Shown here: piece after piece, positions 8,816-28,522 of the stretch
Layout: each line of letters starts with the position of its first letter
How positions within the stretch are numbered: the stretch's first letter is position 1
Assembly: GCA_013360215.1 (NCBI GenBank)
Contig: JABWCP010000034.1
Span: 1 to 29,712, forward strand
DNA from: a bacterium
Lineage (GTDB): Bacteria > CLD3 > SB21
Direction of reading: 5' to 3'
DNA: 29,712 bases
Translations under genes and position numbers: made by a program
Notes under the pieces: generated by a model
Told to the model about the DNA's origin: nothing
The model's database searches: none
Seen by the model: only the letters and a program-made list of their open reading frames with translations

Positions 8816-8962
8816 ATTGGCCTCGTGACTTCACAGGAATGTTTTATAAATTTTTTTAGTGTACGGAGCACCCATACGCACGCGTAAAGTTAAACGCGTA
8901 CAATGATGTGTGTTTTATTTTTCATAGTTGGTTTTTTTCCCTTCAAAGCGTATCATACACCC

Positions 8963-9763
8963 ATGTGCCGATTAGTTTTATACAAAGGCCCGGCAATATC
9001 GCTAGGTCACCTGCTTCACACACCGAAGCATTCAATCATCAAACAAAGTTATGAAGCGCGGGAGATGCTGCGCGGAACAACCAACGAAGACGGATTCGGA
9101 CTGGCGTGGTATGCGCCGCATTGGTCCGACGAACCCGCCGTTTATCGCAGTATCCAACCGATCAGCAATGATGTCAACATGCATACGATGGCCGGCAAAA
9201 TAAGTTCGGACATCATTTTGGCGCATGTACGCGGCGCTTCCGAAGGTATGCCCGTCGCGATCACCAATACGCATCCTTTTGGTTGGCAACGTTATGCTTT
9301 TATGCACAACGGCGCCGTGGATGAATTTCGCTCACGGTTTTTTCCGGAATTATTCAACGATATTCATCCTTCGCTTTGGCCGCACATCAAAGGCAATACC
9401 GATTCCGAACATGTTTTCGGATTATGGTTAAGTTACCTTGGTTTAGATAAGAATGCGTCGTTGCATGAACAAGTATCGGCGCTTCGTCGCACATTTCAGC
9501 GATTGGAAACCATCGCACAAACACAAAACTTAGACATCGTATTGAATATCGGAATTTCCGACGGACAGAACATCATTGCCGCACGGTTTCATTACGGAAG
9601 CCGCAAAGCTACATTGTATTACAATGACCATCTCACGTTATTTCCCGATGCTGTGATGATCGCATCCGAGGCGCAAACCGATGATGCAGGATGGAAACCC
9701 GTACCCGAACGCAGTATCCTCACAATTACTTCAAATAACATCCTTCACATTGAAGCATTTTAA
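8963..9763 (+). CDS. Class II (Ntn-type) glutamine amidotransferase, YafJ/EgtC-like
   Basis: The ORF-track start at 8903 adds 20 hydrophobic residues. The internal Met at 8963 gives an MC... N-terminus (MCRLVLYKGPAISLGHLL), as required for the Cys-2 nucleophile of Ntn amidotransferases. GFGLAWY and HVRGAS motifs are present. Confidence 0.7.
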   Translation: MCRLVLYKGPAISLGHLLHTPKHSIIKQSYEAREMLRGTTNEDGFGLAWYAPHWSDEPAVYRSIQPISNDVNMHTMAGKISSDIILAHVRGASEGMPVAITNTHPFGWQRYAFMHNGAVDEFRSRFFPELFNDIHPSLWPHIKGNTDSEHVFGLWLSYLGLDKNASLHEQVSALRRTFQRLETIAQTQNLDIVLNIGISDGQNIIAARFHYGSRKATLYYNDHLTLFPDAVMIASEAQTDDAGWKPVPERSILTITSNNILHIEAF

Positions 9764-12555: not shown

Positions 12556-12900
12556 ATGCGAGAACAAACCCATCCTATCCAAAGTATCGAAGAAGAACTG
12601 GCGGAAGCGGAGTTATCGCTCCATAGTGGTAATGACGGACGCGCGCGGGTACAATCACGCCGGGCCGTAGGATTGGCTGTCACGGCATGGCATGCCTCCC
12701 GCGGCGAATTCTCAAGACGTCCTGCGATCGAGCATTTGCGCCATATCGCGCAGGACGCAGCGCTGCCGACGCCCGTACAAAAAGCCGCCGCACGTCTGAT
12801 CAAAAACGTCAACGATCGCTTATCCGCTGATTATACGTTACACCCGGTACGCGACGCACGCATTATCATCACTTATTTTTTACAACGTCTAACCCCTTAA
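12556..12900 (+). CDS. Hypothetical protein (114 aa)
   Basis: The ORF is co-directional and tightly spaced with flanking + strand genes (ends 12900, next gene starts 12911). No recognisable motif. It competes with an antisense 92-aa ORF (12534..12812). Confidence 0.4.
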   Translation: MREQTHPIQSIEEELAEAELSLHSGNDGRARVQSRRAVGLAVTAWHASRGEFSRRPAIEHLRHIAQDAALPTPVQKAAARLIKNVNDRLSADYTLHPVRDARIIITYFLQRLTP

Positions 12901-12910: not shown

Positions 12911-13918
12911 ATGTTTTCAACCATATTCATCATCATCGCCGGTACCGCCATCACCATTGCCGGTATCACCGCGTATAACAAAATCAAAGGCCTGATTCTC
13001 AGAAAACCCAAAGGCTTCCATCTTAACCTCGTCGAGTTTTTCCTCGTGCCGGTCGTGGCGCTTCTGATCGTTTTCGAGATATGGTCGCGCATCGTGGGTA
13101 CCCAGGAAGTGCACGCTCTGGAAATGAGCGGCAACATGCTCTGGGCGCTCGAACACGTCTCACGCGGCACCGGTAATTGGGGCGAACGTTTTTCTCTGCG
13201 CAATGTATTTGGTATCCGCGTCAGCGACGGCACGTACCTTTATAAAAAATCCATGGAAGGCAATTTTCAACGTATCGCTCAAAAAGAAAATATCGCCTGG
13301 TGCTGGGATGATGAAACGATCGTCGGTGTCGAATCTTCGACCGGCGATGTGAAATACACGATTGATCCCGATCGGTTTGAATCGTTACCGGCGTTTCGCG
13401 ATGGGGTGGCCGGTTTTGATATGAAAGCCGATGGTATCATACGTGCCACTAATAAATCCGGTCAGACGATAAACATTGACCCGCTCCATTTTACGGAAAT
13501 CGCTGCACCGCCGGATACAATAGCATCCGAACCCATTACGGCTTCGTCGGATTCTTTCAAGTTTGCTATGTCCGATACGACGAATGCGCAATTGGTCAAC
13601 GCGGCCGGCCAAATTATTTCTAAAGACATTTTAACGCACGGGCGGATTTTGCAAGTGGATCCCGTTCAAAAAATCATCATCACCCGGCATTATGAGAATA
13701 ACGATCCGCAGGATTTTATCATATCCGCGTACCTTTTTAACGGGACATTGCGCTGGCAGGTACGCTATGATCAACTCGGTGTTCGGCGTTTTTTCCTCAA
13801 AAAGAGCTTATTGGCGCACAGCCTGATCGCCGATGAACGGTTTATATTTTCAGCCGGCAACTTTGTCGTCGCATTGGATATTGCAACCGGCAGGCTTTTA
13901 TGGAAAACGGCGTTATAA
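12911..13918 (+). CDS. Hypothetical membrane-anchored protein (2 N-terminal TM helices, C-terminal PQQ-like beta-propeller-like region)
   Basis: 335 aa. Hydrophobic segments FIIIAGTAITIAGITAY and FFLVPVVALLIVFEIW. The C-terminal ATGRLLWKTAL resembles PQQ-repeat signatures. Confidence 0.5.
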   Translation: MFSTIFIIIAGTAITIAGITAYNKIKGLILRKPKGFHLNLVEFFLVPVVALLIVFEIWSRIVGTQEVHALEMSGNMLWALEHVSRGTGNWGERFSLRNVFGIRVSDGTYLYKKSMEGNFQRIAQKENIAWCWDDETIVGVESSTGDVKYTIDPDRFESLPAFRDGVAGFDMKADGIIRATNKSGQTINIDPLHFTEIAAPPDTIASEPITASSDSFKFAMSDTTNAQLVNAAGQIISKDILTHGRILQVDPVQKIIITRHYENNDPQDFIISAYLFNGTLRWQVRYDQLGVRRFFLKKSLLAHSLIADERFIFSAGNFVVALDIATGRLLWKTAL

Positions 13919-13958
13919 GAATACCCTTCTTTAAAGAAACTATGTTCGCAGATCGGAT

Positions 13959-13975
13959 CGATTATTTTATAATCG
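13959..13975. promoter_or_regulatory. Perfect palindrome CGATTAT-ttt-ATAATCG in the promoter region of the hydroxyproline operon (candidate operator)
   Basis: 7-bp inverted arms with a 3-bp spacer, 72 bp upstream of the first gene of the cluster (ATG 14047). A GGAGA Shine-Dalgarno-like element sits 8 bp before the ATG. Confidence 0.3.
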
Positions 13976-14046
13976 CGTTTTAAAAATTTATTGTCTTTCA
14001 AATATTCTGTGATATATTACACGTATATTACAAATGGAGATAAAAC

Positions 14047-14943
14047 ATGCATTCCACATGGCAAGGAATATTTCCTGCAACGACAACTAAATTTAAACCC
14101 GACTTCAGCGTAGATTATGCGGCGATCGAAAAGCATACGACGTGGATGCTGGAAGCCGGAATTCACGGCCTCGTTGTTCTGGGTTCTCTTGGAGAAAACC
14201 TCACCCTCACCGAAGACGAAAAACTCGCCATACTCAAAACGGCATGCAACGTTTGCGCCGGAAAAATCCCGGTCATTGCAACCGTGATGGAAACTTCCAC
14301 GGCCAAGGCTTGTGCTTTTGCAGAAAAAGCTGCACGCGCCGGAGCACAGGGATTCATGGTATTGCCCGGCGTTCCGTATCCGTCCGATGCCCGCGAAACG
14401 ATCGCACATTACCGCACGATCGCCAAAGCAACCGACATCCCGATCATGATCTACAATAATCCGGTGGCTTATAAAGTAGACATTACACCGGAAATGTTTG
14501 CGGAAATGGCGGACGAACCCCATTTTGTAGCGATCAAAGAATCGTCCGATAATATTAGACGCGTGACGGATATCTATAATCGCGTAGGAAACCGTTATCG
14601 GATTTTTTGCGGCGTGGATGATTTGGCTATGGAAGCGCTCACTCTTGGCGCGGACGGATGGTTGGCCGGGTTGGTAGTAGCTTTCCCGCATGAAACGGTA
14701 GCAATCTACAATCTCGTGCGCGAAGGTAAAATGCAACAAGCGCTCGAAATCTACCGATGGTTCATGCCGCTGCTGCATCTGGACGTAAACACCAAATTTG
14801 TCCAAAACATCAAACTGACGGAACAATTGGTCGGTGTCGGTTCGGAGATCGTTCGTGCACCACGATTGCCTTTGATCGGAGATGAGCGTGCGCGCGTCGA
14901 ACATATCGTCCGGGAAGCTTTAGCCAAGCGTCCGAAGCTCTGA
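14047..14943 (+). CDS. DapA/DHDPS-family lyase. In this context, 1-pyrroline-4-hydroxy-2-carboxylate (Pyr4H2C) deaminase of D-hydroxyproline catabolism.
   Basis: 298 aa. DHDPS/NAL fold with Schiff-base Lys in FVAIKESS, GLVVLGSLGE and IYNNP motifs. It is the first gene of a hydroxyproline catabolic cluster (epimerase, D-Hyp dehydrogenase and KGSA dehydrogenase follow). Confidence 0.7.
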   Translation: MHSTWQGIFPATTTKFKPDFSVDYAAIEKHTTWMLEAGIHGLVVLGSLGENLTLTEDEKLAILKTACNVCAGKIPVIATVMETSTAKACAFAEKAARAGAQGFMVLPGVPYPSDARETIAHYRTIAKATDIPIMIYNNPVAYKVDITPEMFAEMADEPHFVAIKESSDNIRRVTDIYNRVGNRYRIFCGVDDLAMEALTLGADGWLAGLVVAFPHETVAIYNLVREGKMQQALEIYRWFMPLLHLDVNTKFVQNIKLTEQLVGVGSEIVRAPRLPLIGDERARVEHIVREALAKRPKL

Positions 14944-15040
14944 CAAAAAATCTGATTTACTATATCCGATCCGGGATGTACATTGATCGGCACTTCTTTG
15001 GTTACACATTCTGTAGTTCTCATCTAAACAAATATTACAC

Positions 15041-16486
15041 ATGACCACCGATATCAAACGTTTGTATATCAACGGTTCATGGATTGACGGTGGCGATACG
15101 TTTGCCAATATCAATCCGTCCGATACGTCCGACCTGATCGCTCATTATGCCGTCGCCACGGCCGATCATGTACATGATGCCGTCGCATCCGCCAAACAAG
15201 CTTTCCCCGCATGGTCGCTTTCCACTCCGCAACAACGGTTTAATATTCTCGACGCCGTTGGTGGTGAAATTTTAGCACGGCAAGATGAACTAGGCCGTTT
15301 GCTGTCGCGAGAAGAAGGAAAAACATTGCCCGAAGGAATCGGCGAAGTGGTACGCGCCGCGATGATATTCAAATTTTTTGCCGGAGAAGCTCTGCGTGCA
15401 GGTGGCGAACGCATGGCCTCCGTACGACCGGGGGTTATGGTAGATATGATGCGCGAACCGCTCGGTGTCGTCGGACTCATCACGCCATGGAATTTTCCGA
15501 TCGCAATACCGGCGTGGAAAATAGCCCCGGCATTAGCATTCGGTAACTGCGTCGTTTTTAAACCGGCTGAATTAGTCCCCGGTTGTGCATGGGCTTTGAC
15601 CGAAATTTTACACAAAGCTGGAATTCCCGCCGGTGTGTTTAACTTACTCATGGGCAAAGGATCTGTCATCGGTCGTACGATCGTTGAGCATCCCGATGTA
15701 AATGCCATTAGCTTTACCGGCTCCGTCGGTGTCGGACGACAGGTTGCGGCACAGTGTGCGGCACGTTTGGCCAAAGTACAACTGGAAATGGGAGGGAAAA
15801 ATCCTCTCGTAATCTTAGATGATGCCGATCTGTCCGTCGCCGTCAACGCCGCCGTACAAGGTGCCTATTATTCCACAGGCCAGCGATGCACGGCGTCAAG
15901 CCGCCTTATCGTGACCGAAGGTATTCATGATGCATTTGTGAAAGCTCTGACGGACAAACTTCAAACCCTGCGCATAGATGATGCATTGGCGCAAGGCACG
16001 GATATCGGCCCGGTCGTTGATCTGACACAGATGAATAAAGACCTCGAATACATTACTATCGGCGCACAAGAGAATGCACATCTTGCGTTTGGCGGTGTCG
16101 CACTCGAACGCAGCAAAAAAGGTTTTTACCTGCAACCCGCGCTGTTTACAGAGACTACCTCTGCCATGCGAATCAACCGCGAAGAAATTTTCGGCCCGGT
16201 CGCGTCAGTGATACGCGTTAAAAATTATGATGAAGCCTTAGCTATGGCCAACGATACCCCGTTCGGTCTGACGTCGGGTATCTGCACGACTTCGCTTAAA
16301 TTCGCAGAACACTTCAAGCGGCACGCGCAGGCCGGCATGGTGATGATCAATCTGCCCACTGCCGGAGTGGATTATCATGTACCCTTCGGAGGACGCAAAG
16401 GCTCCAGCTATGGGGCGCGTGAACAAGGCACGTATGCACGCGAATTTTATACAACAGTAAAAACGGCATATACCTTTGCGGGGTAA
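15041..16486 (+). CDS. NAD(P)+-dependent aldehyde dehydrogenase, probable alpha-ketoglutaric semialdehyde dehydrogenase
   Basis: 481 aa. Catalytic Glu in LEMGGKNP and catalytic Cys in TGQRCTASSR. GSVGVG NAD-binding motif. Position in the Hyp cluster. Confidence 0.75.
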   Translation: MTTDIKRLYINGSWIDGGDTFANINPSDTSDLIAHYAVATADHVHDAVASAKQAFPAWSLSTPQQRFNILDAVGGEILARQDELGRLLSREEGKTLPEGIGEVVRAAMIFKFFAGEALRAGGERMASVRPGVMVDMMREPLGVVGLITPWNFPIAIPAWKIAPALAFGNCVVFKPAELVPGCAWALTEILHKAGIPAGVFNLLMGKGSVIGRTIVEHPDVNAISFTGSVGVGRQVAAQCAARLAKVQLEMGGKNPLVILDDADLSVAVNAAVQGAYYSTGQRCTASSRLIVTEGIHDAFVKALTDKLQTLRIDDALAQGTDIGPVVDLTQMNKDLEYITIGAQENAHLAFGGVALERSKKGFYLQPALFTETTSAMRINREEIFGPVASVIRVKNYDEALAMANDTPFGLTSGICTTSLKFAEHFKRHAQAGMVMINLPTAGVDYHVPFGGRKGSSYGAREQGTYAREFYTTVKTAYTFAG

Positions 16487-16488
16487 CT

Positions 16489-17127
16489 ATGAAAGTCAGT
16501 CTCACCGATCAGGCCTACGATAAAATCGAAGAGATGCTCGTCACGTTAAAATTCAAACCCGGAACGATCATATCCGAACCTGAAATCATCGAACGGATCG
16601 GCATGGGGCGCACTCCGGTCCGCGAGGCTTTATTGCGATTGGGCAAGGAACACATGATCAAAGCCATTCCGCGCAAAGGCATTTATATCAACGAAATCCA
16701 CATCACCGATCACATCGCGTTGATGGAAACGCGTCGGGCACTGGAACGCATTATTGCTATGCGTTCGGCCAATCGCGCTACGGCGGAACAGAAAAAAGAA
16801 CTGACCCGCCTCTCGCAACGTATTGTGGATGCCGCGAAAAAAAATGATATCGAAACGTTCATTCATGCCGACCATGCGTTTGACCTTATCATCAGTGAAG
16901 CCTGTCGCAATCCGTATGCCTCCGAAGCCTGTGCTTCGCTTCGCGCGCATTGCCGACGCTTCTGGTATCGTTTTCATCATGATCAGGATTTGGTAACTTC
17001 CGCTAAACTGCACGCTGAGGTTATGAGTGCTATCGTCGCAGGTAATGAAGTGCGCGCGGGTACCGCCTCCGACAAACTGATGGATTATCTGGATCAGATG
17101 ACGCGCGTTGCGATGAATAAAGGATAA
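16489..17127 (+). CDS. GntR-family transcriptional regulator (FadR subfamily, FCD ligand-binding domain)
   Basis: 212 aa. N-terminal winged HTH (ISEPEIIERIGMGRTPVREALLRLGKEHMI) and all-helical C-terminal domain. Its start is 2 nt after the ALDH stop (TAAcuAUG). Confidence 0.8.
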   Translation: MKVSLTDQAYDKIEEMLVTLKFKPGTIISEPEIIERIGMGRTPVREALLRLGKEHMIKAIPRKGIYINEIHITDHIALMETRRALERIIAMRSANRATAEQKKELTRLSQRIVDAAKKNDIETFIHADHAFDLIISEACRNPYASEACASLRAHCRRFWYRFHHDQDLVTSAKLHAEVMSAIVAGNEVRAGTASDKLMDYLDQMTRVAMNKG

Positions 17128-17204
17128 GAATTAGAATTTAGAATTTAGAATTTAGAATTTAGAATTTAGAATTTAGAATTTAGAATTTAGAATTTAGAAT
17201 TTAG
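17128..17204. repeat. Heptanucleotide tandem repeat (AATTTAG)n: 10 perfect copies plus one degenerate copy (gaattag), 77 bp
   Basis: Read directly: GAATTAG AATTTAG x10. It begins immediately after the GntR stop codon and ends 6 bp before the ATG of the 4-Hyp epimerase gene (17211). Confidence 0.95.
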
Positions 17205-17210
17205 GTCATT

Positions 17211-18212
17211 ATGTCACGACATACATTTTCATGCATTGATGCACATACCTGCGGCAATCCGGTACGCGTTGTTACCAGCGGCGGTCCGGCACTCTTAGGC
17301 GCTAATATGAGTGAACGCCGTCAGCACTTTCTTCGCGAATTCGACTGGATACGTAAAGCGCTTATGTTCGAACCGCGTGGTCACGATATGATGTCAGGCA
17401 GCATTTTTTATCCTCCGATTGATCCGGCCAATGATGTTGCGATATTATTTATCGAAACGAGCGGCTGCCTGCCGATGTGCGGTCATGGCACGATCGGCAC
17501 AGTCACTGTGCTCATCGAGCAACGTTTGATCACGCCGCGCACACCCGGCATCCTCCGCTTGGAAGTTCCCGCCGGTATCGTCGAGGCACATTATACAATC
17601 CAACATAATAAAGTGACCAGTGTTCGCATCGTCAATATCCCCTCGTTCCTCCATTCGCAAAATCTTACCGTCGAATGCCCCGATCTCGGCGAAATCACAC
17701 TGGATGTCGCATACGGTGGTAATTTTTATGCGATCGTGGATCCGCAAAAAAACTTTAAAGGTCTTGAGACGATTTCTGCCGGTGATGTTTTACGATGGAG
17801 TCCGATCGTTCGCCAGCGTATCAACGAAAAATATACTTTCACCCATCCCGAAAATCCCACGATTTGCGGCTGTTCCCATTTACAATGGACGGGCGCTCCG
17901 ACACAAAACGAAGCCCACGCCCGCAATGCCGTATTCTACGGTGATAAAGCAATTGACCGCTCGCCCTGCGGCACAGGCACTTCCGCGCGCATGGCCCAGT
18001 GGGCGGCCAAAGGAAAACTCAAAACCGGCGATACGTTTGTACATGAAAGTATCATCGGAAGTATGTTTCGCGGGCGCGTGGAACGCACAACGCATGTCGG
18101 TGATTACGATGCCATCGTTCCAAGCATCGAAGGATGGGCTTACGTCACAGGTTACAATACGATTTTTATAGATACGGATGATCCCTACGCATACGGTTTT
18201 CAAGTTATGTAA
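17211..18212 (+). CDS. Proline racemase-family enzyme with Cys/Cys catalytic pair: 4-hydroxyproline 2-epimerase (or proline racemase)
   Basis: 333 aa. First catalytic Cys in SGCLPMCGHG (Cys90, nt 17478-80). Second catalytic Cys in DRSPCGTGTSARMA (nt 17967-69). Confidence 0.75.
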   Translation: MSRHTFSCIDAHTCGNPVRVVTSGGPALLGANMSERRQHFLREFDWIRKALMFEPRGHDMMSGSIFYPPIDPANDVAILFIETSGCLPMCGHGTIGTVTVLIEQRLITPRTPGILRLEVPAGIVEAHYTIQHNKVTSVRIVNIPSFLHSQNLTVECPDLGEITLDVAYGGNFYAIVDPQKNFKGLETISAGDVLRWSPIVRQRINEKYTFTHPENPTICGCSHLQWTGAPTQNEAHARNAVFYGDKAIDRSPCGTGTSARMAQWAAKGKLKTGDTFVHESIIGSMFRGRVERTTHVGDYDAIVPSIEGWAYVTGYNTIFIDTDDPYAYGFQVM

Positions 18213-18257
18213 CGGGATACGGTAAACATATAGAAAAAATTTAATTCGGATACGCAA

Positions 18258-19517
18258 ATGAGTTCAAAAAAAACAGATGTCGCCATCATCGGCGGAGGTG
18301 TGATCGGATTATGTACAGCGTATTACCTCAATAAAGCCGGCATCTCGGTTACGATCATCGAAAAAAAACAGCCCGGCTTTGGTTCGTCTTTCGGCAACGC
18401 CGGTCTCATCAGTCCTAGTCATTTCGTTCCTCTGGCGGCGCCGGGTATGGTTGCCAAAGGTCTCAAATGGATGTTTGATGCAGAAAGTCCATTCTATATT
18501 CATCCGCGCCCGGACATTGATCTTATCACATGGCTGTGGAAGTTTATGCGCGCGAGTACCGATAAGCGCATGCGCCCGGCTATGCCGGTATTACGCGATA
18601 TGACATTAGCCAGTCAGCAGCTTTTTCATACCATTGCCAATGAAGAGCGTTTTGATTTTGCTCTGGAACAAAAAGGCCTCATTCTTTTGCATGATACCGC
18701 CGAAGGTGAAAAAGCGCATCATCACGAAGTAGCTTTAGCCAATGAAGTCGGCGTTACGGCACGTATGATCTCGCGGGAGGAGATTCACCAAATGCAACCC
18801 GGCGTAAAAGTGCGCGCCACGGGCGGCGTATTTTTTCCCCAAGACGGGCATCTCATCCCCGATCAGTTTAACGCCAAGCTCACGTCGTTATTGCAAACAC
18901 GCGGTGTGCAGTTTATGAACGAAACCGATGTATTTGGCTTTGTCCCCAACGGCAAAGCGGCGGGACATCTGCGCACCAGCGAGGGTGACATCCATGCGAA
19001 TCAGTATGTCGTGGCGGCCGGCGCATGGACGTCCGATCTGCTCTACGAAATCGGTATTGCACTCCCGGTGCAAGCCGGTAAAGGCTATAGCGTGACCGTT
19101 AAGCGCGACAAGAATAATCTTACGATTCCGATCATTTGTACCGAAGCGCGTGTAGCCATTACCCCAATGGGCGATACGATTCGTTACGCCGGTACGCTGG
19201 AGTTGAGTGGTAACGATCTGACCATCAATCCGCGTCGCGTGAAAGCGATACTCCGGGCCGCAGACCGCTATCTTGAAAATTTTGATGCACAATCGTCGGA
19301 TATACAAACAGCCTGGGCCGGCCTTCGCCCGTGTTCACCGGACGGATTGCCTTTCATCGGCCGATTTAAGCGCACTCCCAACGTAATCGCCGCGACCGGC
19401 CATGCGATGCTCGGTATTACTCTAGGACCGATTACCGGGAAACTGGTCTCTGAAATTGTTACCAATGCACCCCAAACCATTGTATCACCGTTATTGGATG
19501 CAGACCGCTATGCCTGA
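18258..19517 (+). CDS. FAD-dependent oxidoreductase (DadA/DAO-like), probable D-hydroxyproline dehydrogenase
   Basis: 419 aa. N-terminal Rossmann dinucleotide motif VAIIGGGVIGLCTAYYL…IIEK. DAO-family C-terminal motif (GHAMLGITLGP). Confidence 0.75.
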   Translation: MSSKKTDVAIIGGGVIGLCTAYYLNKAGISVTIIEKKQPGFGSSFGNAGLISPSHFVPLAAPGMVAKGLKWMFDAESPFYIHPRPDIDLITWLWKFMRASTDKRMRPAMPVLRDMTLASQQLFHTIANEERFDFALEQKGLILLHDTAEGEKAHHHEVALANEVGVTARMISREEIHQMQPGVKVRATGGVFFPQDGHLIPDQFNAKLTSLLQTRGVQFMNETDVFGFVPNGKAAGHLRTSEGDIHANQYVVAAGAWTSDLLYEIGIALPVQAGKGYSVTVKRDKNNLTIPIICTEARVAITPMGDTIRYAGTLELSGNDLTINPRRVKAILRAADRYLENFDAQSSDIQTAWAGLRPCSPDGLPFIGRFKRTPNVIAATGHAMLGITLGPITGKLVSEIVTNAPQTIVSPLLDADRYA

Positions 19518-20577
19518 AAAAAAATCGGTATTTGAAAAACGCCTGCGCGCTATGCAGCGTTGGGAAGCGCCCGCATCGTGGCGGCGTATCGAAACGATCG
19601 AAGCGCATACCGGCGGTGAACCGCTCCGCATCATCATATCAGGATTACCGCCGATCAAAGGCCAAACCATTCTTCAGAAACGGGCGTACCTCAAGACGCA
19701 TCTTGATCATCTCCGTACGGCGCTGATGTGGGAACCGCGCGGCCATGCCGATATGTACGGTTGTATCATCACTCCGCCGGTGGAAAAAAATTCCGATTTC
19801 GGTGTGATTTTTTTGCATAACGAAGGTTATTCCACCATGTGCGGCCACGGCATCATCGCTGTTACCAAAGCGGCCGTAGAAACCGGACTTATTCATGCAC
19901 GCGGTACGAAAGTCACACTGCGCATTGATTCGCCCGCAGGACTGATCACTTCCATAGCCCAAATCCGGCGCGGCAAAGTGCAATCCGTTCGTTTTCTCAA
20001 TGTTCCATCGTTTGTACAAACTTTGGATGCCGTCGTCGACATACCGGGATTGGGACGCATACGTTATGATCTTGCGTACGGCGGTGCATTTTACGCTTTT
20101 GTGCACGCCGAAGATGCCGGTGTAACGATGGATGCGGCAGGATATCGCGGCCTTATCGAACGCGGCATGATGATCAAACGCGCTGTTATGCGGAGCGTAG
20201 CCATGCAACACCCATTCGAATCGGAGCTCAATTTTTTATACGGTACGATTTTCACCGGCCCGGGACATACGACCGGCGCAGATTCCCGCAATGTCTGTAT
20301 TTTTGCCGACGGCGAAGTGGATCGAAGCCCGACAGGAACGGGAGTCAGCGCGCGAATGGCTATTCACCATGCGCGCGGTGCGCTTCGCACCGGTGAACCG
20401 ATGGCCATCGAAAGCATTACAGGCAGTCGCTTTGTGTGCCGCGTTCATGCGACGACGACGTATGGTAACTACCCGGCGGTGATCCCCGCTATCGAAGGCA
20501 CGGCGCATCTCTGCGGAAAAAGCTCCTGGATTATAGATCCTGCCGATTCGCTGCAGGACGGTTTTTTCTTCCGTTAA
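19510..20577 (+). CDS. Proline racemase-family enzyme with Cys/Thr pair: trans-3-hydroxy-L-proline dehydratase
   Basis: ATG at 19510 overlaps the upstream stop (cuAUGccUGA). An alternative ATG at 19498 (in-frame, 4 codons upstream) is possible. The ORF-track start at 19456 is probably too long. First catalytic Cys retained (GYSTMCGHG). Second catalytic residue is Thr (DRSPTGTGVSARMA, ACA at 20332-34), the known discriminator of T3LHyp dehydratases versus epimerases. Confidence 0.7.
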   Translation: MPEKKSVFEKRLRAMQRWEAPASWRRIETIEAHTGGEPLRIIISGLPPIKGQTILQKRAYLKTHLDHLRTALMWEPRGHADMYGCIITPPVEKNSDFGVIFLHNEGYSTMCGHGIIAVTKAAVETGLIHARGTKVTLRIDSPAGLITSIAQIRRGKVQSVRFLNVPSFVQTLDAVVDIPGLGRIRYDLAYGGAFYAFVHAEDAGVTMDAAGYRGLIERGMMIKRAVMRSVAMQHPFESELNFLYGTIFTGPGHTTGADSRNVCIFADGEVDRSPTGTGVSARMAIHHARGALRTGEPMAIESITGSRFVCRVHATTTYGNYPAVIPAIEGTAHLCGKSSWIIDPADSLQDGFFFR

Positions 20578-20582
20578 AATCC

Positions 20583-21551
20583 ATGCGATTTATTCCAAGC
20601 GACACACTGCGTGAGTTGATCACTATGCCTGAAGCGATAACGGCAATGCAATCGGCATTTTCTGCATTATCCGATGGGTCGGCTGTTGTGCCGCTTCGAA
20701 CGACCCTTGACTTTCCCGGTTCCGACGCCCGTGCGCTGATCATGCCGGCTTATCATTCATCATCTCGGTACTTCACGACCAAAATAGTGACGGTATGTCC
20801 GACCAATGCCGCGCGCCATCTTCCGCTCATCCACGGTACACTGATCGTTACGGACGGATCCACAGGAAAAACACTGGCACTGATGGATGCAGAGTGGATT
20901 ACGGCTTTGCGGACTGGTGCGGCTTCCGGACTGGCCACGGAATGGATGGCTCTTCCCGATGCGCATACATTAGGAGTTTTCGGGACAGGTGCGCAGGCCT
21001 ACGAACAGGTGCGTGGCGTCATGAGTGTACGGAAATTAACACGGATTATTATATTTGGCCGCGATCCCCAAAAAACAACTACGTTTTGTAAAACTGTTTC
21101 AAATCAATTTGCAATTCCTTGTTTTCCCGCTCAAGCGCCGCAAGAGGTTTCCCAATGTGATATCCTCTGCTGCGCAACCAATGCGCATAACCCGGTTTTT
21201 GAAGATAAGTATCTCACGCACGGTACGCACATCAATGGTATCGGCGCATTCAAACCCGCAATGCGTGAAATACCATCAGCGACTATAGCACGCGCTCGCA
21301 TTATCGTAGATCAACGCGCATCCGCATGGCGTGAAGCCGGCGACTTGATCCTCGCTCAAAAAGATGGAGTAGTCGCTGAAGATTGCATTGCCGGCGAAAT
21401 CGGCGAAGTCGTCACGCATAAAACTTCCGGACGTATATCCCGAGAACAAATCACCATCTTCAAGTCCGTAGGTAATGCGATTCAGGATAATGTAATTGCA
21501 TCCATGGCTTATGAACGTGCCCTCAAAGCGGGAATAGGAACGGAGATTTGA
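20583..21551 (+). CDS. Ornithine cyclodeaminase/mu-crystallin-family protein, probable delta1-pyrroline-2-carboxylate reductase
   Basis: 322 aa. OCD/mu-crystallin fold with NAD(P) Rossmann motif GVFGTGAQA. Located 5 bp downstream of the Cys/Thr dehydratase gene. Confidence 0.65.
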   Translation: MRFIPSDTLRELITMPEAITAMQSAFSALSDGSAVVPLRTTLDFPGSDARALIMPAYHSSSRYFTTKIVTVCPTNAARHLPLIHGTLIVTDGSTGKTLALMDAEWITALRTGAASGLATEWMALPDAHTLGVFGTGAQAYEQVRGVMSVRKLTRIIIFGRDPQKTTTFCKTVSNQFAIPCFPAQAPQEVSQCDILCCATNAHNPVFEDKYLTHGTHINGIGAFKPAMREIPSATIARARIIVDQRASAWREAGDLILAQKDGVVAEDCIAGEIGEVVTHKTSGRISREQITIFKSVGNAIQDNVIASMAYERALKAGIGTEI

Positions 21552-21754
21552 ACCTACGATTAGTATTAGAAAACAACTTGTTCATATTCGAAATATATAT
21601 TTGTTTTGACGTGCCGTAGACCATGACCTCATAATTTCCACATGTAACCAACGCTGATGCTAAAAACATGACCTGTATGACCTATACTTAATGGGTTATT
21701 CACGTACGAATAGACCAATTCGGCGAAACCTTTATTCTTATTTATATTTTCGCT

Positions 21755-22363
21755 CTAGCCTATATGAAAAGACGGGAAGTTATTAGGATTAGAACCTTTC
21801 CCACCTTCACCATAATCATGATCTATATTAAATAAGTTATATTTAATTATTCCATACATAACACTTGTTTGTGAGCTGCGCTTCGAGATAATTAATCCGG
21901 GGGAAATACCCGAGGCAAGTTTATCCGTTCGTTCAGAATAAAATAAAAAATAATTAGTATAGTTCAGCAAAAGAGACATTTGCATTTTCGAATTATCAGG
22001 AGTAACTCTATATTTTAACATTCCTCTTAAGCCAAAATCACAACTTTTTATATTCGCACCCAACACAACTTTAGAGAGTAACACCGGTGCGGCATACCCA
22101 CTCCACAAACTTGCCCCTACATTTAGGCGGTCACTTATACCATACGATAACCTAGGTTCAAGTATTGCGGGTGTAATCGCTTTTACAAAATGATCTCTTG
22201 GTTTTTTTGACCATTCTTCTGGACCACCTGAAGCGCTAGTCAGTACACTGAATTTCCCACGATTTAATGTTTCCGCATCTTGGTGTTCAATTATACTTAT
22301 ACCGCCACAACTAATTTGAGGTAAGGAAAAAATAATTATACAGCATTTAACAATTTTATTCAT
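21755..22363 (-). CDS. Secreted hypothetical protein, outer-membrane beta-barrel-like
   Basis: 202 aa. Signal peptide plus alternating hydrophobic pattern. The ATG lies 36 bp beyond the distal end of the last repeat element (22399). No matching element follows its stop. Confidence 0.45.
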   Translation of the reverse strand: MNKIVKCCIIIFSLPQISCGGISIIEHQDAETLNRGKFSVLTSASGGPEEWSKKPRDHFVKAITPAILEPRLSYGISDRLNVGASLWSGYAAPVLLSKVVLGANIKSCDFGLRGMLKYRVTPDNSKMQMSLLLNYTNYFLFYSERTDKLASGISPGLIISKRSSQTSVMYGIIKYNLFNIDHDYGEGGKGSNPNNFPSFHIG

Positions 22364-22398
22364 CGTTGCCCCATTTTAATAGAATATAACCGCATGGT

Positions 22399-22590
22399 AC
22401 ATAACGGATCGCGACAATCTGCGATGGTGCGGTATAAGGTTTCGAAAATTTCAAACCACTCGTGTCTCGCGCCACGCTGTATGTGAAGTGCGAACTCGAT
22501 TTATTATTTGACATTATTAAGATTACCCTTAAAATCCCATTTTAAATATTGTACGAGCCCTGAATGAACAGATGGACCGCGAATTATTCG
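22399..22590 (-). repeat. attC-like element copy 1 (degenerate 5' stem arm)
   Basis: acATAACggatcgcgac … cgcgccacg … gaacagatggaccgcgAATTATtcg. It is the most distal copy. Confidence 0.5.
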
Positions 22591-23403
22591 TTGGACTTAT
22601 CAGTTTTTAATAATTTTGTCCTTACGAAAATCTTGTAAGATGCTTTTCTGAAGAAAAACCCGTCACCTTTAGTGAATACACCATCGGAATAAATGGACAT
22701 TTAATGCTCCATATTCTATTTTGATAGTTTTGATTGCATATTTGGCTTCCCATATCACTGCATCACTTTTAATCGGTTGCAACATAAATAAAAAAAACTT
22801 CTTGTTTCTCTACCGCTAGAAGTGATACTTATGAAGTAGCGCCGGTATATTTATCTGTATACGTTCTAATTCCAATGTTTTCAATTGCAGTATTATCAGA
22901 TTTTGTATGGTAATAGTCAGCAGTTTCCATACTTAAAATTAGATCTGCACAAACTCGTGTACAATTTCCTCAACTGTTTGACTGATTAATAATCTATTTC
23001 CTTCTATAATCTTTAATTCAATTTGGTAGGTATTTAGCATTTCTTCTAATTTTTTTAAACGCACCATGAAATTCCCTATTTATAAACTCTATCTACATGT
23101 TTACGGGTACTTTTTTATCAGGTAGATCCCACAATTTCTTTAATTAAGATTTAAAATTACCTCGCGCACAGGAAATAACTAAAAATAGAAATGTAAAAAA
23201 AATATTTTTCAAAAGACTTTCAATTTTTAAACGTTCTGTGACGTTTGCATAACTTTTCATAGTATTAGATGCGCCATTGTTCGAGGTATCTTTATCTTTA
23301 AACTTTCTACTCTTGGTACTCGCATCTATCTGAACCGAGATATGTCATCAAATATCGCAGTCTGGGGAAACAAATATAGAGCATTTCGATTTCATTGCCG
23401 TTA

Positions 23404-24030
23404 TCATGGGGTTATGATCGGCGTATCCGCACTGAATAAAAGTCCAATAGAAATTGACCCTGACCATAAATTTTTTAATTGATTTGCCGAAACTGAGAAA
23501 ACAAGAGAAGCCTTGGAAGTCAGTTGTTTAGCGCTTGAAATACCCAAAAAAACACCAGTTTGTGGTTTAGCGCTACGTTCTCCACTCAAAATCATCACAA
23601 CCCCATATCCAAGTTCCGGCGCCAAACGAAAATCATTTCCTTCAGTAATATCTACGGACATACCACCGCTAAAGTTAATTGATTGAGGCATAGCAAATTT
23701 TGCACGTTTCCATTTCAAAAAAGCAAAGTCAACAAAAGGATGTAGGCGCCCTGAGGCAGAATACATTTCAATTTCTGGGGAAAAATAACTAACTTCTTTT
23801 TCATCAGATTTCAATGTTCCACCGACAATGCTGAATTCGATACCTTCTTTGAAGCTAATCGATAAATATCCTGCTTTTGACGAGGAATTTTTACTTCCAT
23901 ACGCATGAACACCGCCCATACTCATGACAGAACCATCACAATGCGAAACTAGCCGCCTTTGAGCGCTAGAAGGGGTGATTAAGAACTGAAGCAGAGCCGT
24001 TAAAAACAATAGTTTTTTCATATTCAACAT
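23404..24030 (-). CDS. Cassette ORF: secreted outer-membrane beta-barrel-like protein (208 aa)
   Basis: Signal peptide MKKLLFLTALLQFLITPSSAQ followed by amphipathic beta-strand pattern. Confidence 0.5.
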   Translation of the reverse strand: MLNMKKLLFLTALLQFLITPSSAQRRLVSHCDGSVMSMGGVHAYGSKNSSSKAGYLSISFKEGIEFSIVGGTLKSDEKEVSYFSPEIEMYSASGRLHPFVDFAFLKWKRAKFAMPQSINFSGGMSVDITEGNDFRLAPELGYGVVMILSGERSAKPQTGVFLGISSAKQLTSKASLVFSVSANQLKNLWSGSISIGLLFSADTPIITP

Positions 24031-24107
24031 TCCAAAGGTTACTAAAATGAGGCATCACTCAAAACATCATGCTACAAATGTTGTACCAGTAAACAAGTAA
24101 ATCCAAT

Positions 24108-24240
24108 CGTCTAATTCTACTTGCTCAACGCGCCACAATGTATTCGAACTGTAAACTCAAATTATTATTTAAAAAACAATCACTTGAAAAATCTTATTTT
24201 CTGTGTTCCGCAATCAGTGAGCAAACATCTGTGGTTATGC
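24108..24240 (-). repeat. attC-like element copy 2 (truncated and degenerate)
   Basis: cGTCTAAttc…cgcgccacaatgtattcgaact…ttattatttaaaaa…cagtgagcaaacatctgtgGTTATGC. It aligns to the 3' two-thirds of copy 10. Confidence 0.4.
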
Positions 24241-24432
24241 TATTCAATGCTGCTTTGATTTAGTATCCAAACAATAATCCACATTCAACTGCCTCAACAA
24301 ATCTGTTTTTATGATTCCTTAATGATATCAATATTTTATGTTTTTTTATCATTAACATTGACTTTTTCTATCTTTCCATAATTCCAAGCCCAAAAGTACT
24401 CCCAATATTGGCATTTGATTACCATTAAACGT

Positions 24433-24553
24433 ATATAACTGTAGCGGCATGCTGCAAGTAACTATTATTTGTTAAAACTTTAACCATTCCTTGTAAAAAC
24501 CTTACTTTCAATACTTCACGAGGAGCATGCGAACAGATGGGTGCGGGTTAGAG
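24433..24553 (-). repeat. attC-like element copy 3 (short variant lacking the central hairpin)
   Basis: ATATAAC-tgtagcggcatgctgcaagtaactattatttgttaaaac…tactttcaatacttcacgaggagcatgcgaacagatgggtgcgGGTTAGAG. Confidence 0.5.
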
Positions 24554-24679
24554 ACATTACAGATTTATTTATTCATCTCATTTTTTTGCAGCTGTTGCAA
24601 TATTCAATCCTGGGGCTAAATTAGCACCTATCACAGCTCGTTGCGGCCAATGATTTGGATCTGAACCAATTCATTGTTT

Positions 24680-24925
24680 TCATAGATTATAAAAAACGCC
24701 ACGGCTTTCTATACGACTCAATATAATTTGTAATGATAGAATATGAGTTTTGTGCGAACCGGTCTCTTCCAATGGCTTTTCAAGTTGATATAAACACGCC
24801 TCAACTTCTTTGTCAAAATCTGGAATTTTAGCTACTGTCGATACAACCCATATAATATTGTCATGCGAAACCATTCGCGAGCGACCAGGCACACTTGCGT
24901 TCCATCTTTTAATTTTATTTTCCAT
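24680..24925 (-). CDS. Cassette ORF: hypothetical protein (81 aa)
   Basis: Only ORF in the 24554..24993 cassette. Start is 70 bp from the upstream element end. Confidence 0.4.
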   Translation of the reverse strand: MENKIKRWNASVPGRSRMVSHDNIIWVVSTVAKIPDFDKEVEACLYQLEKPLEETGSHKTHILSLQIILSRIESRGVFYNL

Positions 24926-24993
24926 TCAATCCTGTCGACAGCAATATATTACTCTATCAATTTAATCAGCTTTTGTTAATTAGTATTGAAGCT

Positions 24994-25182
24994 AAAAGTC
25001 TTCGGTATCCACGGTTCTGTAGCGGAGGTATTTAAAAACTTCAAATCTCTCGCGCCTCACGCCACAGTATCGGCACAATGCGGGTTACAATTATTTGCTA
25101 AAATTCTAATCAGTATCTATAAAAATCTTATTATCCATATTCTACGAGCATCGTGCGAACGGATCACTAGAAGATTAGACGC
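24994..25182 (-). repeat. attC-like element copy 4 (degenerate ends)
   Basis: …cggtatccacggttctgtagcggaggta…ctctcgcgcctcacgccacagtatcggcacaatgcgggttacaattatttg…ctacgagcatcgtgcgaacggatcac…GATTAGAC. Abuts the stop of ORF 25191..25757. Confidence 0.5.
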
Positions 25183-25190
25183 ACATCAAT

Positions 25191-25757
25191 TTATTTCAAT
25201 TTCAATCTCAAACCAATTCCTAGTGCAACATGGTTATATTTTATGTTCATCTTCTCATCCTCAAACTTCCATCGCGCTTTATGCCGTTGATAACCAATAT
25301 CAAAATTTAAAAAAAAGAAGTTTAAACCCGTAGAAATCCCAAAATATGAACCATCTTTGATCGTTCCTCCCCCTTCATAAGAAACATTATTAGATATTAA
25401 TGAAACCCCATATTGAAAGCCAAAATACACGTGGTTCATGTGGTCCGATAACTTAATTTGCAGGGCACCATAAAATGGTCTTACGCTAAATTTTCCTCCC
25501 CATCTTTTAGTCGCCATTGTGGTACTTTTGCTCATACCGCCACCTATAATAAAATATTTGTTTACCGGAAAGAGCATTTCACCTGAAAATTGTATTGAAT
25601 GTACTTTCTCAGTTAATGGCTCTTTTAAATCCCAAAAGTTTGTTGACTCTGATATATGTTTTCCATCAATATCTTTTGAGATTCTTAAAAAGATTTCTTG
25701 AGCATTGATTGAAGATGCTAAAGATGCGATTAAAAGTGTCGAGATTACTCTATTCAT
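25191..25757 (-). CDS. Cassette ORF: secreted outer-membrane beta-barrel-like protein (188 aa)
   Basis: Signal peptide MNRVISTLLIASLASSINAQE. Alternating hydrophobic residues. C-terminal …ALGIGLRLKLK. Confidence 0.5.
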   Translation of the reverse strand: MNRVISTLLIASLASSINAQEIFLRISKDIDGKHISESTNFWDLKEPLTEKVHSIQFSGEMLFPVNKYFIIGGGMSKSTTMATKRWGGKFSVRPFYGALQIKLSDHMNHVYFGFQYGVSLISNNVSYEGGGTIKDGSYFGISTGLNFFFLNFDIGYQRHKARWKFEDEKMNIKYNHVALGIGLRLKLK

Positions 25758-25793
25758 TCTTAGTTTTAAATATAAACATGCAAATTGATGTGC

Positions 25794-25960
25794 GTCTAAC
25801 GTTGCCTGTATCTGCGGTGCTGCGGCGTGGGGTATCTGAAAATTTTCGACTATTAGCCCCTCGCACCGCGATATGTGCCGAGACGCGTGCCCAGCTATCG
25901 TATCCGGGAGAATCTAATATTACACGTATCGAGATCGCTGCCGCTATCATGGAGTTAGGC
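25794..25960 (-). repeat. attC-like element copy 5 (textbook ends: GCCTAAC proximal and GTTAGAC distal on the cassette strand)
   Basis: + strand: GTCTAACgttgcctgtatctgcggtgctgcggcgtgggg…cccctcgcaccgcg…GTTAGGC. GTTAGGC at 25954-60 lies 5 bp from the stop (25947-49) of ORF 25947..26417. The interior is divergent from the other copies while the stem is retained with indels. Confidence 0.6.
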
Positions 25961-26417
25961 GTCTGCACAGCGCTTTTATTTTAAAAATATCACATAAATT
26001 AAACTTTGATTCATCAAAATCATTGTACTTATACTCTGCAAAAACAGCAATTTTTTGTTTGCCAACTAAAATACTATCAATATATAATGTATTATTTGTA
26101 ATACTAAACTCTACTCCTGAATCAAATGTATTTTCTTCGCTATTCCAACTCCTTAATAAACCATTTTCAACTTTATACGAGGTCTCCCCTTCATAATCAA
26201 TACAATCACCCTCATCATCATAACTCCATTCTTTTTGAGTATCGGCTGTAAACTGCATGTAAAATTCGCCCTCGTAAAGAGACTTGTTTTGCTTGTATAA
26301 CTTCCATTTTGTATTTGGAATAGATGCAATGTTGTTTTCTTTATCATCACTACAGGCTTGCAAAGCACTAAAAATTATAACGATTGTTGCGAGGCTTTTG
26401 ATAAGGAACGACTTCAT
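25947..26417 (-). CDS. Cassette ORF: lipoprotein (156 aa)
   Basis: Signal peptide with lipobox (FSALQACSD). Confidence 0.5.
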   Translation of the reverse strand: MKSFLIKSLATIVIIFSALQACSDDKENNIASIPNTKWKLYKQNKSLYEGEFYMQFTADTQKEWSYDDEGDCIDYEGETSYKVENGLLRSWNSEENTFDSGVEFSITNNTLYIDSILVGKQKIAVFAEYKYNDFDESKFNLCDIFKIKALCRRLTP

Positions 26418-26517
26418 ACAATCTCCTAATTTAAAACTATTTATATAGTGGAATTTCGATCATAAATACATTTGAGTATGTGTTTAGTAAATGGATTGGC
26501 GGTCAATGCTGCATGAC

Positions 26518-26708
26518 GCCTAACGGTCTCCGGTATCTGCGGTGCTGTGGCGCGAGGTATATGAAAAACTCAAACCTCTCGTACCTCGCTCCACAGTATC
26601 GGCACGATGCGAGTTACAATTATCGTTAGAAATCTAATCATTACCTACAAAAACCCTGTTTTCAATAATCTAAGAGCAGCAAGCGAACGGATGGGCCGCG
26701 TGTTATTC
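26518..26708 (-). repeat. attC-like element copy 6
   Basis: GCCTAACggtctccggtatctgcggtgctgtggcgcgaggta…cctcgctccacagtatcggcacgatgcgag…ctaagagcagcaagcgaacggatgggccgcgtGTTATTC. It is 18 bp from the stop of ORF 26726..27253. Confidence 0.6.
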
Positions 26709-26725
26709 GAAGACCCGCGTTCACT

Positions 26726-27253: not shown

Positions 27254-27303
27254 GCAATCCTTTCTATCTCTTTTTAGGGATTAAATTGTGTTAAGCGGCT
27301 TTC

Positions 27304-27494
27304 GGATAACGGTCTCCGGTATCCGCGGTGCTGTGGCGCGAGGTACCTGAAAACATAAAATCTCTCGTGCCTCGCGCCACAGTATCGGCATGCTGCGAGT
27401 TACAATTATTTATTAGAAGTCTACTCATTACCTATAAAAAGCTTATTTTCAACACTCTACGAGCATCGTGCGAACGGATCACCGGATGGTTATC
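27304..27494 (-). repeat. attC-like element copy 7
   Basis: GGATAACggtctccggtatccgcggtgctgtggcgcgaggtacctgaaaac…cctcgcgccacagtatcggcatgctgcgag…gaacggatcaccggatgGTTATC. Followed by only 102 bp before copy 8. Confidence 0.6.
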
Positions 27495-27596
27495 ACCTTC
27501 ACAAGCCATTAATCCAAATAATAATATCACAAGTAGGTTGGAAAAATAGAATCTCATAAAATCCTCTCTTAGTTTTATTAGAAATTGAGAGCTATC

Positions 27597-28508: not shown

Positions 28509-28522
28509 GTGGTGATGCTTCA

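Follow-up and report, generated by a model that had tools for sequence, protein, structure and literature searches.

The window analyzed here, a 29,712-nt stretch of contig JABWCP010000034.1 (assembly GCA_013360215.1), contains at 14047-21551 seven co-directional + strand open reading frames (ORFs), g1 to g7, which very probably form a hydroxyproline (Hyp) catabolic cluster with two branches, one leading from trans-4-Hyp to 2-oxoglutarate and the other from trans-3-Hyp to L-proline. As a plausible course of the first branch, g4 would epimerize trans-4-hydroxy-L-proline to cis-4-hydroxy-D-proline, g5 would oxidize this product to delta1-pyrroline-4-hydroxy-2-carboxylate (Pyr4H2C), g1 would deaminate Pyr4H2C to 2-oxoglutarate semialdehyde (KGSA), and g2 would oxidize the semialdehyde to 2-oxoglutarate. 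In the second branch, g6 would dehydrate trans-3-hydroxy-L-proline to delta1-pyrroline-2-carboxylate (Pyr2C), which g7 would reduce to L-proline using NAD(P)H. This dual-pathway interpretation, put forward in a preliminary description of the DNA, is supported, as all six enzyme roles and the regulator (g3) are present and fit the known schemes, in which trans-4-Hyp is converted by an epimerase, a dehydrogenase of the DAO family, a deaminase of the DHDPS family and an aldehyde dehydrogenase (ALDH), and trans-3-Hyp by a Cys/Thr dehydratase with an OCD- or MLD2-family reductase. Roles were assigned from family, key residues and gene neighborhood for g1, g2, g5 and g7, none of which is closely related to the Pseudomonas, Sinorhizobium or Azospirillum prototypes.

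Organization of the gene cluster

An ORF scan places the seven genes where the preliminary description had placed them, and their coordinates bear out the short or overlapping junctions claimed there (97, 2, 83, 45, -8 and 5 nt from g1 to g7). The family named for each protein is likewise confirmed over its full length by Pfam: DHDPS for g1 (2e-56), Aldedh for g2 (2e-161), GntR plus FCD for g3, Pro_racemase for g4 (5e-131, residues 8-331) and for g6 (2e-111), DAO for g5 (5e-71), and OCD_Mu_crystall for g7 (8e-64). For g6 the ORF list gives a TTG start (19456-20577). The likely start is instead the ATG at 19510, which overlaps the g5 stop by 8 nt in ATGCCTGA and gives a protein of 355 aa; the same call is made on a public contig of a metagenome-assembled genome (MAG), and the alignment to the Thermococcus litoralis enzyme opens ten residues past this ATG. 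g1-g7 would plausibly be transcribed together, as an operon.

Identical genes occur on JAKLJV010000015.1 (MAG GCA_023150995.1) and on further MAG and metagenome contigs, and the names used in public annotation are '4-hydroxyproline epimerase' (g4), 'dihydrodipicolinate synthase family protein' and 'ornithine cyclodeaminase'. G+C content is 0.49-0.55 in the cluster, 0.42-0.50 upstream of it and 0.34-0.40 downstream of 21.6 kb. The long antisense ORFs across the cluster have no family match; among them, a 295-aa ORF that mirrors nearly all of g1 is most likely a shadow ORF. Our searches found no tRNA or Rfam elements, and no inverted repeats in the spacers other than those upstream of g1 and between g3 and g4.

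The two proline-racemase-family enzymes and the adjoining reductase

The family of g4 includes both proline racemases and Hyp epimerases, and several features separate the two. g4 scores 598 bits on the NCBIfam equivalog for 4-hydroxyproline epimerase (NF010578, cut-off 376), whereas its 324 bits on the proline racemase model NF010576 lie below the cut-off of 556. Its full-length identity to HypRE, the epimerase of the hyp cluster on Sinorhizobium meliloti pSymB, is 68%, and it keeps both catalytic cysteines (Cys/Cys) in the motifs LPMCGHG and DRSPCGTG. Substrate-discrimination site 5, six residues ahead of DRSPCG, is Tyr; this site is Cys or Tyr in Hyp epimerases and Phe in proline racemases. 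By these sequence features g4 is a 4-hydroxyproline 2-epimerase, predicted to interconvert trans-4-L-Hyp and cis-4-D-Hyp.

The top PDB match of g6, at 446 bits, is the T. litoralis dehydratase structure 6r76, which we take to be that of TlLhpH. When aligned with 6r76, 7qpo and ProR 1w61, g6 keeps the first catalytic Cys (MCGHG) and carries Thr in place of the second (DRSPTGTG). Such a Cys-Thr pair has been described as characteristic of enzymes that dehydrate trans-3-hydroxy-L-proline (Watanabe et al. 2014, PMC3958920; eLife 2014), and T. litoralis OCC_00387 is a characterized trans-3-Hyp dehydratase (TlLhpI paper). The best match of g6 in the genome scan is only 65% identical. g7 begins 5 nt past the end of g6, i.e., the putative dehydratase directly adjoins the putative Pyr2C reductase. 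Assignment of g6 as a dehydratase of trans-3-hydroxy-L-proline (T3D) of the T. litoralis type is thus supported by the residues and similarities at hand.

Among solved structures, g7 matches 6t3e, the Pyr2C reductase of T. litoralis, best (229 bits), followed by an archaeal AlaDH at 170 bits. Pyr2C reductases of the OCD family are defined by a Rossmann motif, G-x-G-x-x-[A/S], and a substrate-binding tetrad, [R/K]-K-R-D (TlLhpI paper). Arg39, Lys67, Arg110 and Gly134-Thr-Gly-Ala-Gln-Ala139 of g7 stand at numbering identical to the TlLhpI tetrad and Rossmann motif, and Leu52 and the C-terminal Asp302 also align with 6t3e. Because its best match is 6t3e, these residues fall at equal numbering and its score on the model NF045512 is low, g7 is predicted to be a Pyr2C reductase of the T. 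litoralis-like OCD subfamily and not of the Azospirillum or Colwellia LhpI subfamilies. The pairing of the two genes recurs elsewhere: an OCD-family gene lies within 2.5 kb of the g6 homologue in 31 of the 55 genome loci that have such a homologue with sufficient flanking sequence, on the same strand in 30 of them.

Roles proposed for g5, g1 and g2

g5 contains the FAD-binding motif GGGVIG, scores best among NCBIfam models on the D-amino-acid dehydrogenase PRK00711 (272 bits, cut-off 383), and is 29% identical to S. meliloti HypO. It lies 45 nt past g4, and the cluster holds no genes for LhpE/F-like subunits. Homologues 39-50% identical to g5 follow the Hyp epimerase gene (HypE) in six other loci (L008, L011, L141, L142, L172 and L184), an arrangement consistent with a putative cis-4-hydroxy-D-proline dehydrogenase.

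g1 keeps the Schiff-base Lys164 together with Tyr136, and Arg138 of Escherichia coli DapA is replaced. On the DapA model TIGR00674 it reaches 176.7 bits (cut-off 206.15), and the cut-offs for KdgD and NanA are also unmet; on these scores and the absent Arg138, g1 was rejected as a true DHDPS or a KdgD. The preliminary description had named a true DHDPS and a proline racemase as the findings that would speak against a Hyp pathway, and what is found is a g1 of another kind and a g4 that scores far better as a Hyp epimerase. As g1 is only 27-29% identical to S. meliloti HypD, its proposed role as Pyr4H2C deaminase leans on genomic context. Homologues of about 50% identity adjoin a Hyp epimerase and an FAD oxidoreductase in Thalassospira, Spirosoma and Pannonibacter. 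In metagenomes, 49 loci of 5 kb or longer carry a g1 homologue (49-73% identity); next to it stands a proline-racemase-family gene in 30 of them and a DAO gene in 20. Such a neighborhood is also seen in the plasmid loci L007, L008 and L103. Among the closest relatives (63-73%), the order g1-ALDH-GntR-HypE recurs, e.g., in locus L106.

In g2, both catalytic residues of the ALDH family are present, the Glu in LEMGGKNP (ELGG-type) and the Cys in GQRCTA. Its top NCBIfam models are the KGSA and 2,5-dioxovalerate dehydrogenases (516 bits against a cut-off of 770, and 498 against 750), with BADH next at 433; its solved relatives are generic BADH and SSADH enzymes, and it is 29% identical to S. meliloti HypH. 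Orthologues of g2 (54-74% identical) come after the g1 orthologues. These features point to a putative KGSA dehydrogenase.

Weighing the two-branch assignment

Several observations weigh against the two-branch assignment. None of g1, g2, g5, g6 and g7 reaches any NCBIfam equivalog cut-off: the best model for g6, NF045511, gives 394.6 bits with a cut-off of 540 (NF047722, 234 vs 550), and g7 falls below the cut-offs of the Pyr2C-reductase equivalogs PRK06141 (258.6 vs 322), NF045512 (146.7 vs 400) and PRK07340 (172.7 vs 266). g1, g2 and g5 are only 27-29% identical to the S. meliloti regions taken as HypD, HypH and HypO. Homologues of g1 with 48-61% identity sit in non-Hyp settings, among sugar genes in Rhizobium etli and with TRAP and GntR genes in Comamonadaceae and Cupriavidus, so that the g1 clade is not uniformly linked to Hyp. 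Homologues of g5 with 41-48% identity precede a T3D-OCD gene pair in Runella and other Bacteroidota loci where HypE is not nearby. Downstream of g7 no + strand intrinsic terminator was detected, and promoters may lie inside the cluster. Finally, putA is absent from the window, and no transporter-like protein is encoded in the cluster or beside it. The absence of a Hyp transporter inside the cluster, stated in the preliminary description, is borne out by family searches, and hydroxyproline uptake would have to be encoded outside it; relatives carry MFS, amino-acid permease, TRAP or ABC genes.

The Runella-type arrangement deserves separate mention. A three-gene DAO-T3D-OCD module is found in Runella zeae (L021 7587-12063) and in five further loci (L012, L014, L017, L022 and L035), and where flanks are long enough, genes for a Hyp epimerase, DHDPS or ALDH are absent within 10 kb, which suggests a possible role of the g5-type dehydrogenase of these loci in the metabolism of D-proline or 3-Hyp. 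Because g5-type genes also adjoin T3D-OCD without HypE, g5 of the present cluster may also, or instead, oxidize D-proline to Pyr2C. In a rival reading, the cluster would mainly serve to interconvert and salvage D- and L-proline, with g4 as proline racemase, g5 as D-proline dehydrogenase making Pyr2C, g7 converting Pyr2C to L-proline, and g1 and g2 unrelated to Hyp. The solitary g5-g6-g7-like module of Runella fits such a scheme, as does the remark in the T. litoralis work that Pyr2C can be obtained from D-proline via an FAD-dependent D-proline dehydrogenase. It is nevertheless highly improbable, given that g4 scores as a Hyp epimerase (598 bits) and not as a proline racemase (324), with Tyr rather than Phe at site 5 and 68% identity to HypRE, that g6 has the dehydratase Cys/Thr pair, and that g1-g2 orthologues are linked to HypE in many loci.

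DHDPS-family dehydratases that feed a KGSA dehydrogenase are known, namely KdgD and the L-2-keto-3-deoxyarabonate (L-KDA) dehydratase of Azospirillum brasilense, and a 49% identical g1 homologue of R. etli lies among fucosidase, rhamnosidase and LacI genes, so that g1 could be read as a keto-deoxy-glucarate or keto-deoxy-pentonate dehydratase acting with g2 on a sugar-acid route to KGSA and leaving only g4-g7 for Hyp; this is highly improbable, as g1 scores just 114-122 bits on the KdgD models, whose cut-offs are 278-374, genes for a sugar dehydrogenase, lactonase or dehydratase are missing from the window, the g4-g5 branch would lack an exit without g1 and g2, and ALDH, GntR and HypE come after g1 in its closest relatives (63-73%). 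The two-branch Hyp assignment remains the most credible account of the cluster.

The regulator g3 and a candidate operator

The regulator g3 combines an N-terminal GntR winged helix-turn-helix with a C-terminal FCD domain (Pfam). Its identity to the GntR gene that adjoins the hyp genes of S. meliloti is 33%, and in L106 a 44% identical gene takes the position of g3. Repressors of the GntR/FadR type, named HypR, control the hyp genes in S. meliloti and Streptomyces coelicolor.

Comparison of the regions upstream of g1 orthologues yielded a 10-bp palindrome, TGATATATCA. With at most one mismatch, it precedes the g1 orthologue by 34-120 nt in 8 of 84 loci, for the most part those of the closest relatives; from a background of 11 matches in 866 kb, about 0.2 would be expected, an enrichment of ~40-fold. 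In the window, the candidate operator TGTGATATATTACA has a core, TGATATATTA, that is one base off the palindrome and overlaps the -10 element of the second promoter-like match upstream of g1. A partial second copy, GTATATTACA, follows at 14023-14032. In a Caldithrix locus (L062 1557-1566), an exact TGATATATCA lies ~50 nt upstream of a g3-like GntR gene (48%) that precedes a T3D-OCD pair. We infer that the TGATATATCA-like palindrome is the operator of g3. As a HypR-like repressor, g3 would probably bind this palindrome where it overlaps the g1 promoter region, and a Hyp-derived ligand would probably release it.

As a separate observation, two betaproteobacterial plasmids (L100 7992-12703 and L102 8001-12800) carry a g1-like gene (53-55%) linked to a g3-like GntR gene (40-41%). 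TRAP transporter genes stand between the two in L100, L102 is unannotated, and neither has a Hyp epimerase nearby.

A strain-variable heptanucleotide repeat between g3 and g4

A simple sequence repeat (SSR), (AGAATTT)n, fills the whole 83-nt spacer between g3 and g4, beginning at the stop codon of g3 and ending 6 nt short of the g4 ATG; it is the only strong tandem repeat across ~47 kb of this genome. Gap-free contigs of sister strains contain 4, 12, 13 and 14 units, with 2480 flanking nt that differ at 0-6 positions, and the window and two other assemblies with identical flanks contain 10 perfect units plus one imperfect. In contigs L187-L194 the array lies near 1030-1200. These copy numbers are read from assemblies, not from reads, and short-read assemblies mis-size repeats.

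On balance, the array is probably a neutral variable-number tandem repeat (VNTR), or in part an assembly artefact, with no influence on how the cluster is expressed; bacteria commonly have VNTRs between genes. N gaps lie inside the array in four MAG scaffolds, and k=31 contigs break there, in line with mis-sizing, and the 56-nt spacer of the more distant relative L106 has no repeat. A neutral reading sits less easily with the four gap-free contigs, in which copy number varies from 4 to 14 between almost identical flanks, and with the position and predicted fold of the array. RNA folding predicts a long A-U hairpin formed by the array alone (-22.2 kcal/mol, z = -2.8), with a predicted stability that rises with copy number, and in the minimum-free-energy structure a flanking helix takes in the g4 start region. 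In addition, the promoter-like pair TTTAGA-17-TAGAAT is present in each register of the array.

A precedent for function also exists, since a transcribed 7-nt repeat controls hmw1A expression in Haemophilus influenzae. There, as here, a 7-nt repeat of variable copy number, (ATCTTTC)n, stands just upstream of a coding region (hmw1A/hmw2A), and the length of the transcribed hmw1A repeat sets expression via a hairpin in the 5'-untranslated region that is cut by RNase III. The systems differ in that the hmw repeats belong to an adhesin gene of a host-adapted pathogen and pair with a separate G-rich arm, whereas the present array is predicted to be self-pairing and lies between two genes of a catabolic cluster. 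It is a tentative idea, and a rather doubtful one, that the array is a contingency-type switch or rheostat whose length (4 to at least 14 units among strains that are at least 99.8% identical) sets expression of g4-g7 relative to g1-g3. Such a switch could act through a length-dependent RNA hairpin engaging the g4 ribosome-binding region, or through the promoter-like hexamers within the array. A neutral VNTR with some assembly noise is the more likely reading. A scan of viral contigs for heptamer arrays gave six unrelated matches only.

Genomic surroundings

The preliminary description had taken a peptide-binding ABC substrate-binding protein (SBP) gene and a large secreted BNR protein gene upstream of the cluster as a hint that collagen or peptides supply the Hyp. 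Both genes exist, as an SBP_bac_5 gene and a BNR/Sortilin-Vps10 gene 6-11 kb upstream, yet a link to the cluster is unsupported, with seven unrelated genes on both strands between (agmatinase, EgtC-like amidohydrolase, FMN reductase, SPFH protein, methyltransferase and two uncharacterized ORFs). The SBP was rejected as part of an ABC importer; it has no flanking permease or ATPase and sits between the BNR gene and Y_Y_Y sensor kinases. A regulatory link was rejected as well: an operator-like palindrome lies in the SBP promoter region (4630-4643), but the motif test is not significant, with 4 matches to TGTNATATATNACA at up to two mismatches against 1.8 expected, and 11 of 100 shuffles equal or better. 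The best model for the BNR protein is a glycosylhydrolase family, below its cut-off.

The orphan SBP_bac_5 gene encodes a DppA-like lipoprotein and is followed by two ~970-aa Y_Y_Y/HisKA_3 sensor kinases and a LuxR-type response regulator (L185 11808-18342), the first kinase gene crossing the left end of the window. On the same contig outside the window, L185 19361-21623 encodes a 1650-aa secreted Peptidase_M4 (thermolysin-family) protein with FTP, GEVED and cadherin-like domains and a weak Por_Secre_tail match. This protein suggests a proteolytic organism of the Fibrobacterota-Chlorobiota-Bacteroidota (FCB) group with type IX secretion, and because of it, the sensor kinases and the LuxR-type regulator, the host is probably an FCB-group member.

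Among the intervening genes, the amidohydrolase just passes the NCBIfam cut-off for EgtC of ergothioneine biosynthesis (222.6 vs 218.65), and no other recognizable egt genes are present in the window; the agmatinase, divergent from it, passes its own cut-off. Directly upstream of g1 are two co-directional ORFs of 114 and 335 aa, the latter with two N-terminal hydrophobic segments and weak beta-propeller-like PQQ_2/BamB and PA2928-family matches. Downstream, 21600-29712 contains a run of small - strand ORFs, mostly without a family match, several of them with signal-peptide-like N-termini and one with a weak OMP beta-barrel match; genes for an ECF-transporter S component and a GNAT acetyltransferase lie there too.

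Table 1 Features of the cluster and its surroundings. Coordinates refer to the window unless a locus handle is given.
Feature	Coordinates	Strand	Description
g1	14047-14943	+	298 aa, DHDPS/NAL family; putative Pyr4H2C deaminase
g2	15041-16486	+	481 aa, aldehyde dehydrogenase; putative KGSA dehydrogenase
g3	16489-17127	+	212 aa, GntR family, FadR/FCD subfamily; putative HypR-like repressor
g4	17211-18212	+	333 aa, predicted 4-hydroxyproline 2-epimerase
g5	18258-19517	+	419 aa, FAD-dependent DadA-like D-amino-acid dehydrogenase; putative cis-4-hydroxy-D-proline dehydrogenase, possibly D-proline too
g6	19510-20577	+	355 aa, Cys/Thr proline-racemase-family enzyme; predicted trans-3-Hyp dehydratase
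g7	20583-21551	+	322 aa, OCD/mu-crystallin family; predicted Pyr2C reductase
Promoter-like match	13945-13973	+	TTCGCA-17-TATAAT, 10/12, best sigma-70-like match upstream of g1; by consensus only, the host may use another promoter type
Second sigma-70-like match	13991-14018	+	upstream of g1
Candidate operator	14008-14021		TGTGATATATTACA; core TGATATATTA at 14010-14019
(AGAATTT)n simple sequence repeat	17127-17204		11.3 copies; TRF score 149, 98% matches
TGATATATCA-like, L106	553-562
TGATATATCA-like, L107	627-636
TGATATATCA-like, L108	586-595
TGATATATCA-like, L111	187-196
TGATATATCA-like, L148	8881-8890
TGATATATCA-like, L155	3961-3970
TGATATATCA-like, L167	270-279
Antisense ORF opposite g1	14017-14904	-	295 aa, no family match
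First sensor kinase	2-2680	-	crosses left end of window
SBP_bac_5 gene	2865-4487	-	DppA-like lipoprotein
BNR gene	4699-7878	-	BNR/Sortilin-Vps10
Agmatinase	8000-8815	-
Amidohydrolase	8903-9763	+	EgtC-like
ORF upstream of g1	12556-12900	+	114 aa
ORF upstream of g1	12911-13918	+	335 aa

Discussion

Joint encoding of the two routes has precedents. Colwellia psychrerythraea 34H has one cluster with both (Watanabe et al. 2014, PMC3958920), and the eLife 2014 genome-neighborhood study describes composite neighborhoods encoding both pathways. The Colwellia cluster resembles the present one in combining trans-4-Hyp genes with a Cys/Thr dehydratase (LhpH, CPS_1453) and an OCD-type LhpI (PMC3958920); by its description, it differs in organism and gene order, g7 belongs to another OCD subfamily, and no transporter is present here.

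The closest characterized relatives of g6 and g7 are TlLhpH (OCC_00387, 6R76/6R77) and TlLhpI (6T3E) of T. litoralis, and the two genes are clustered in both organisms. T. litoralis, however, is an archaeal hyperthermophile whose cluster has L-proline dehydrogenase genes and a Cys/Cys ProR/HypE and not the route from trans-4-Hyp to 2-oxoglutarate, and its TlLhpI also has AlaDH activity. The hypR/hypD/hypH/hypO/hypRE genes of S. meliloti pSymB represent the same trans-4-Hyp enzyme families with a GntR/FadR-type repressor; HypRE is close to g4, whereas HypD, HypH and HypO are distant members of the same superfamilies. The S. meliloti cluster includes an ABC transporter. ABC-type transporter genes are common in Hyp clusters (2016 paper).

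A parallel in gene order is an uncultured Bacteroidota MAG (L011, CAZLWA010000048.1), whose arrangement agrees with the present one for six of the seven genes, namely DHDPS (70%), ALDH (74%), HypE (78%), DAO (50%), T3D (65%) and OCD (42%). It differs in having an inserted DUF559 gene, an MFS transporter and an S37 peptidase fragment, and in lacking a g3-type GntR gene, the heptamer repeat and the TGATATATCA box.

The match to LhpA/B/C/G plus LhpH/I proposed in the preliminary description accordingly stands for function and family and falls for orthology, because g1, g2 and g5 are 27-29% identical to HypD, HypH and HypO and g7 is of the T. litoralis type. Enzyme names are in any case safer than Lhp letters, as these differ between papers: LhpH and LhpI of 2014 correspond to LhpG and to LhpH or LhpK of 2016, where LhpI denotes aconitase X.

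The pathway assignment itself adds little, as both routes, the superfamilies and their co-clustering were established in 2012-2014. What it contributes is the placement of a probable complete two-branch pathway in an environmental lineage with a gene for a large secreted M4 protease, and a view of which non-orthologous versions fill its roles, namely a dehydrogenase resembling DadA and, of the T. litoralis type, a dehydratase and a reductase. 4- and 3-hydroxyproline are amino acids of collagen and plant walls, and the pathway and the protease together fit a lifestyle of scavenging protein, collagen or plant glycoprotein. The palindrome TGATATATCA provides a testable candidate operator for the HypR-like regulator. 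The strain-variable heptamer repeat is the sole feature that might teach something new: the cases of control by such repeats documented so far concern mainly the surface and restriction-modification genes of pathogens adapted to a host, and the array, if it did act as a switch, would mean that an uncultured, free-living member of the FCB group tunes a nutrient-catabolic operon by an SSR.

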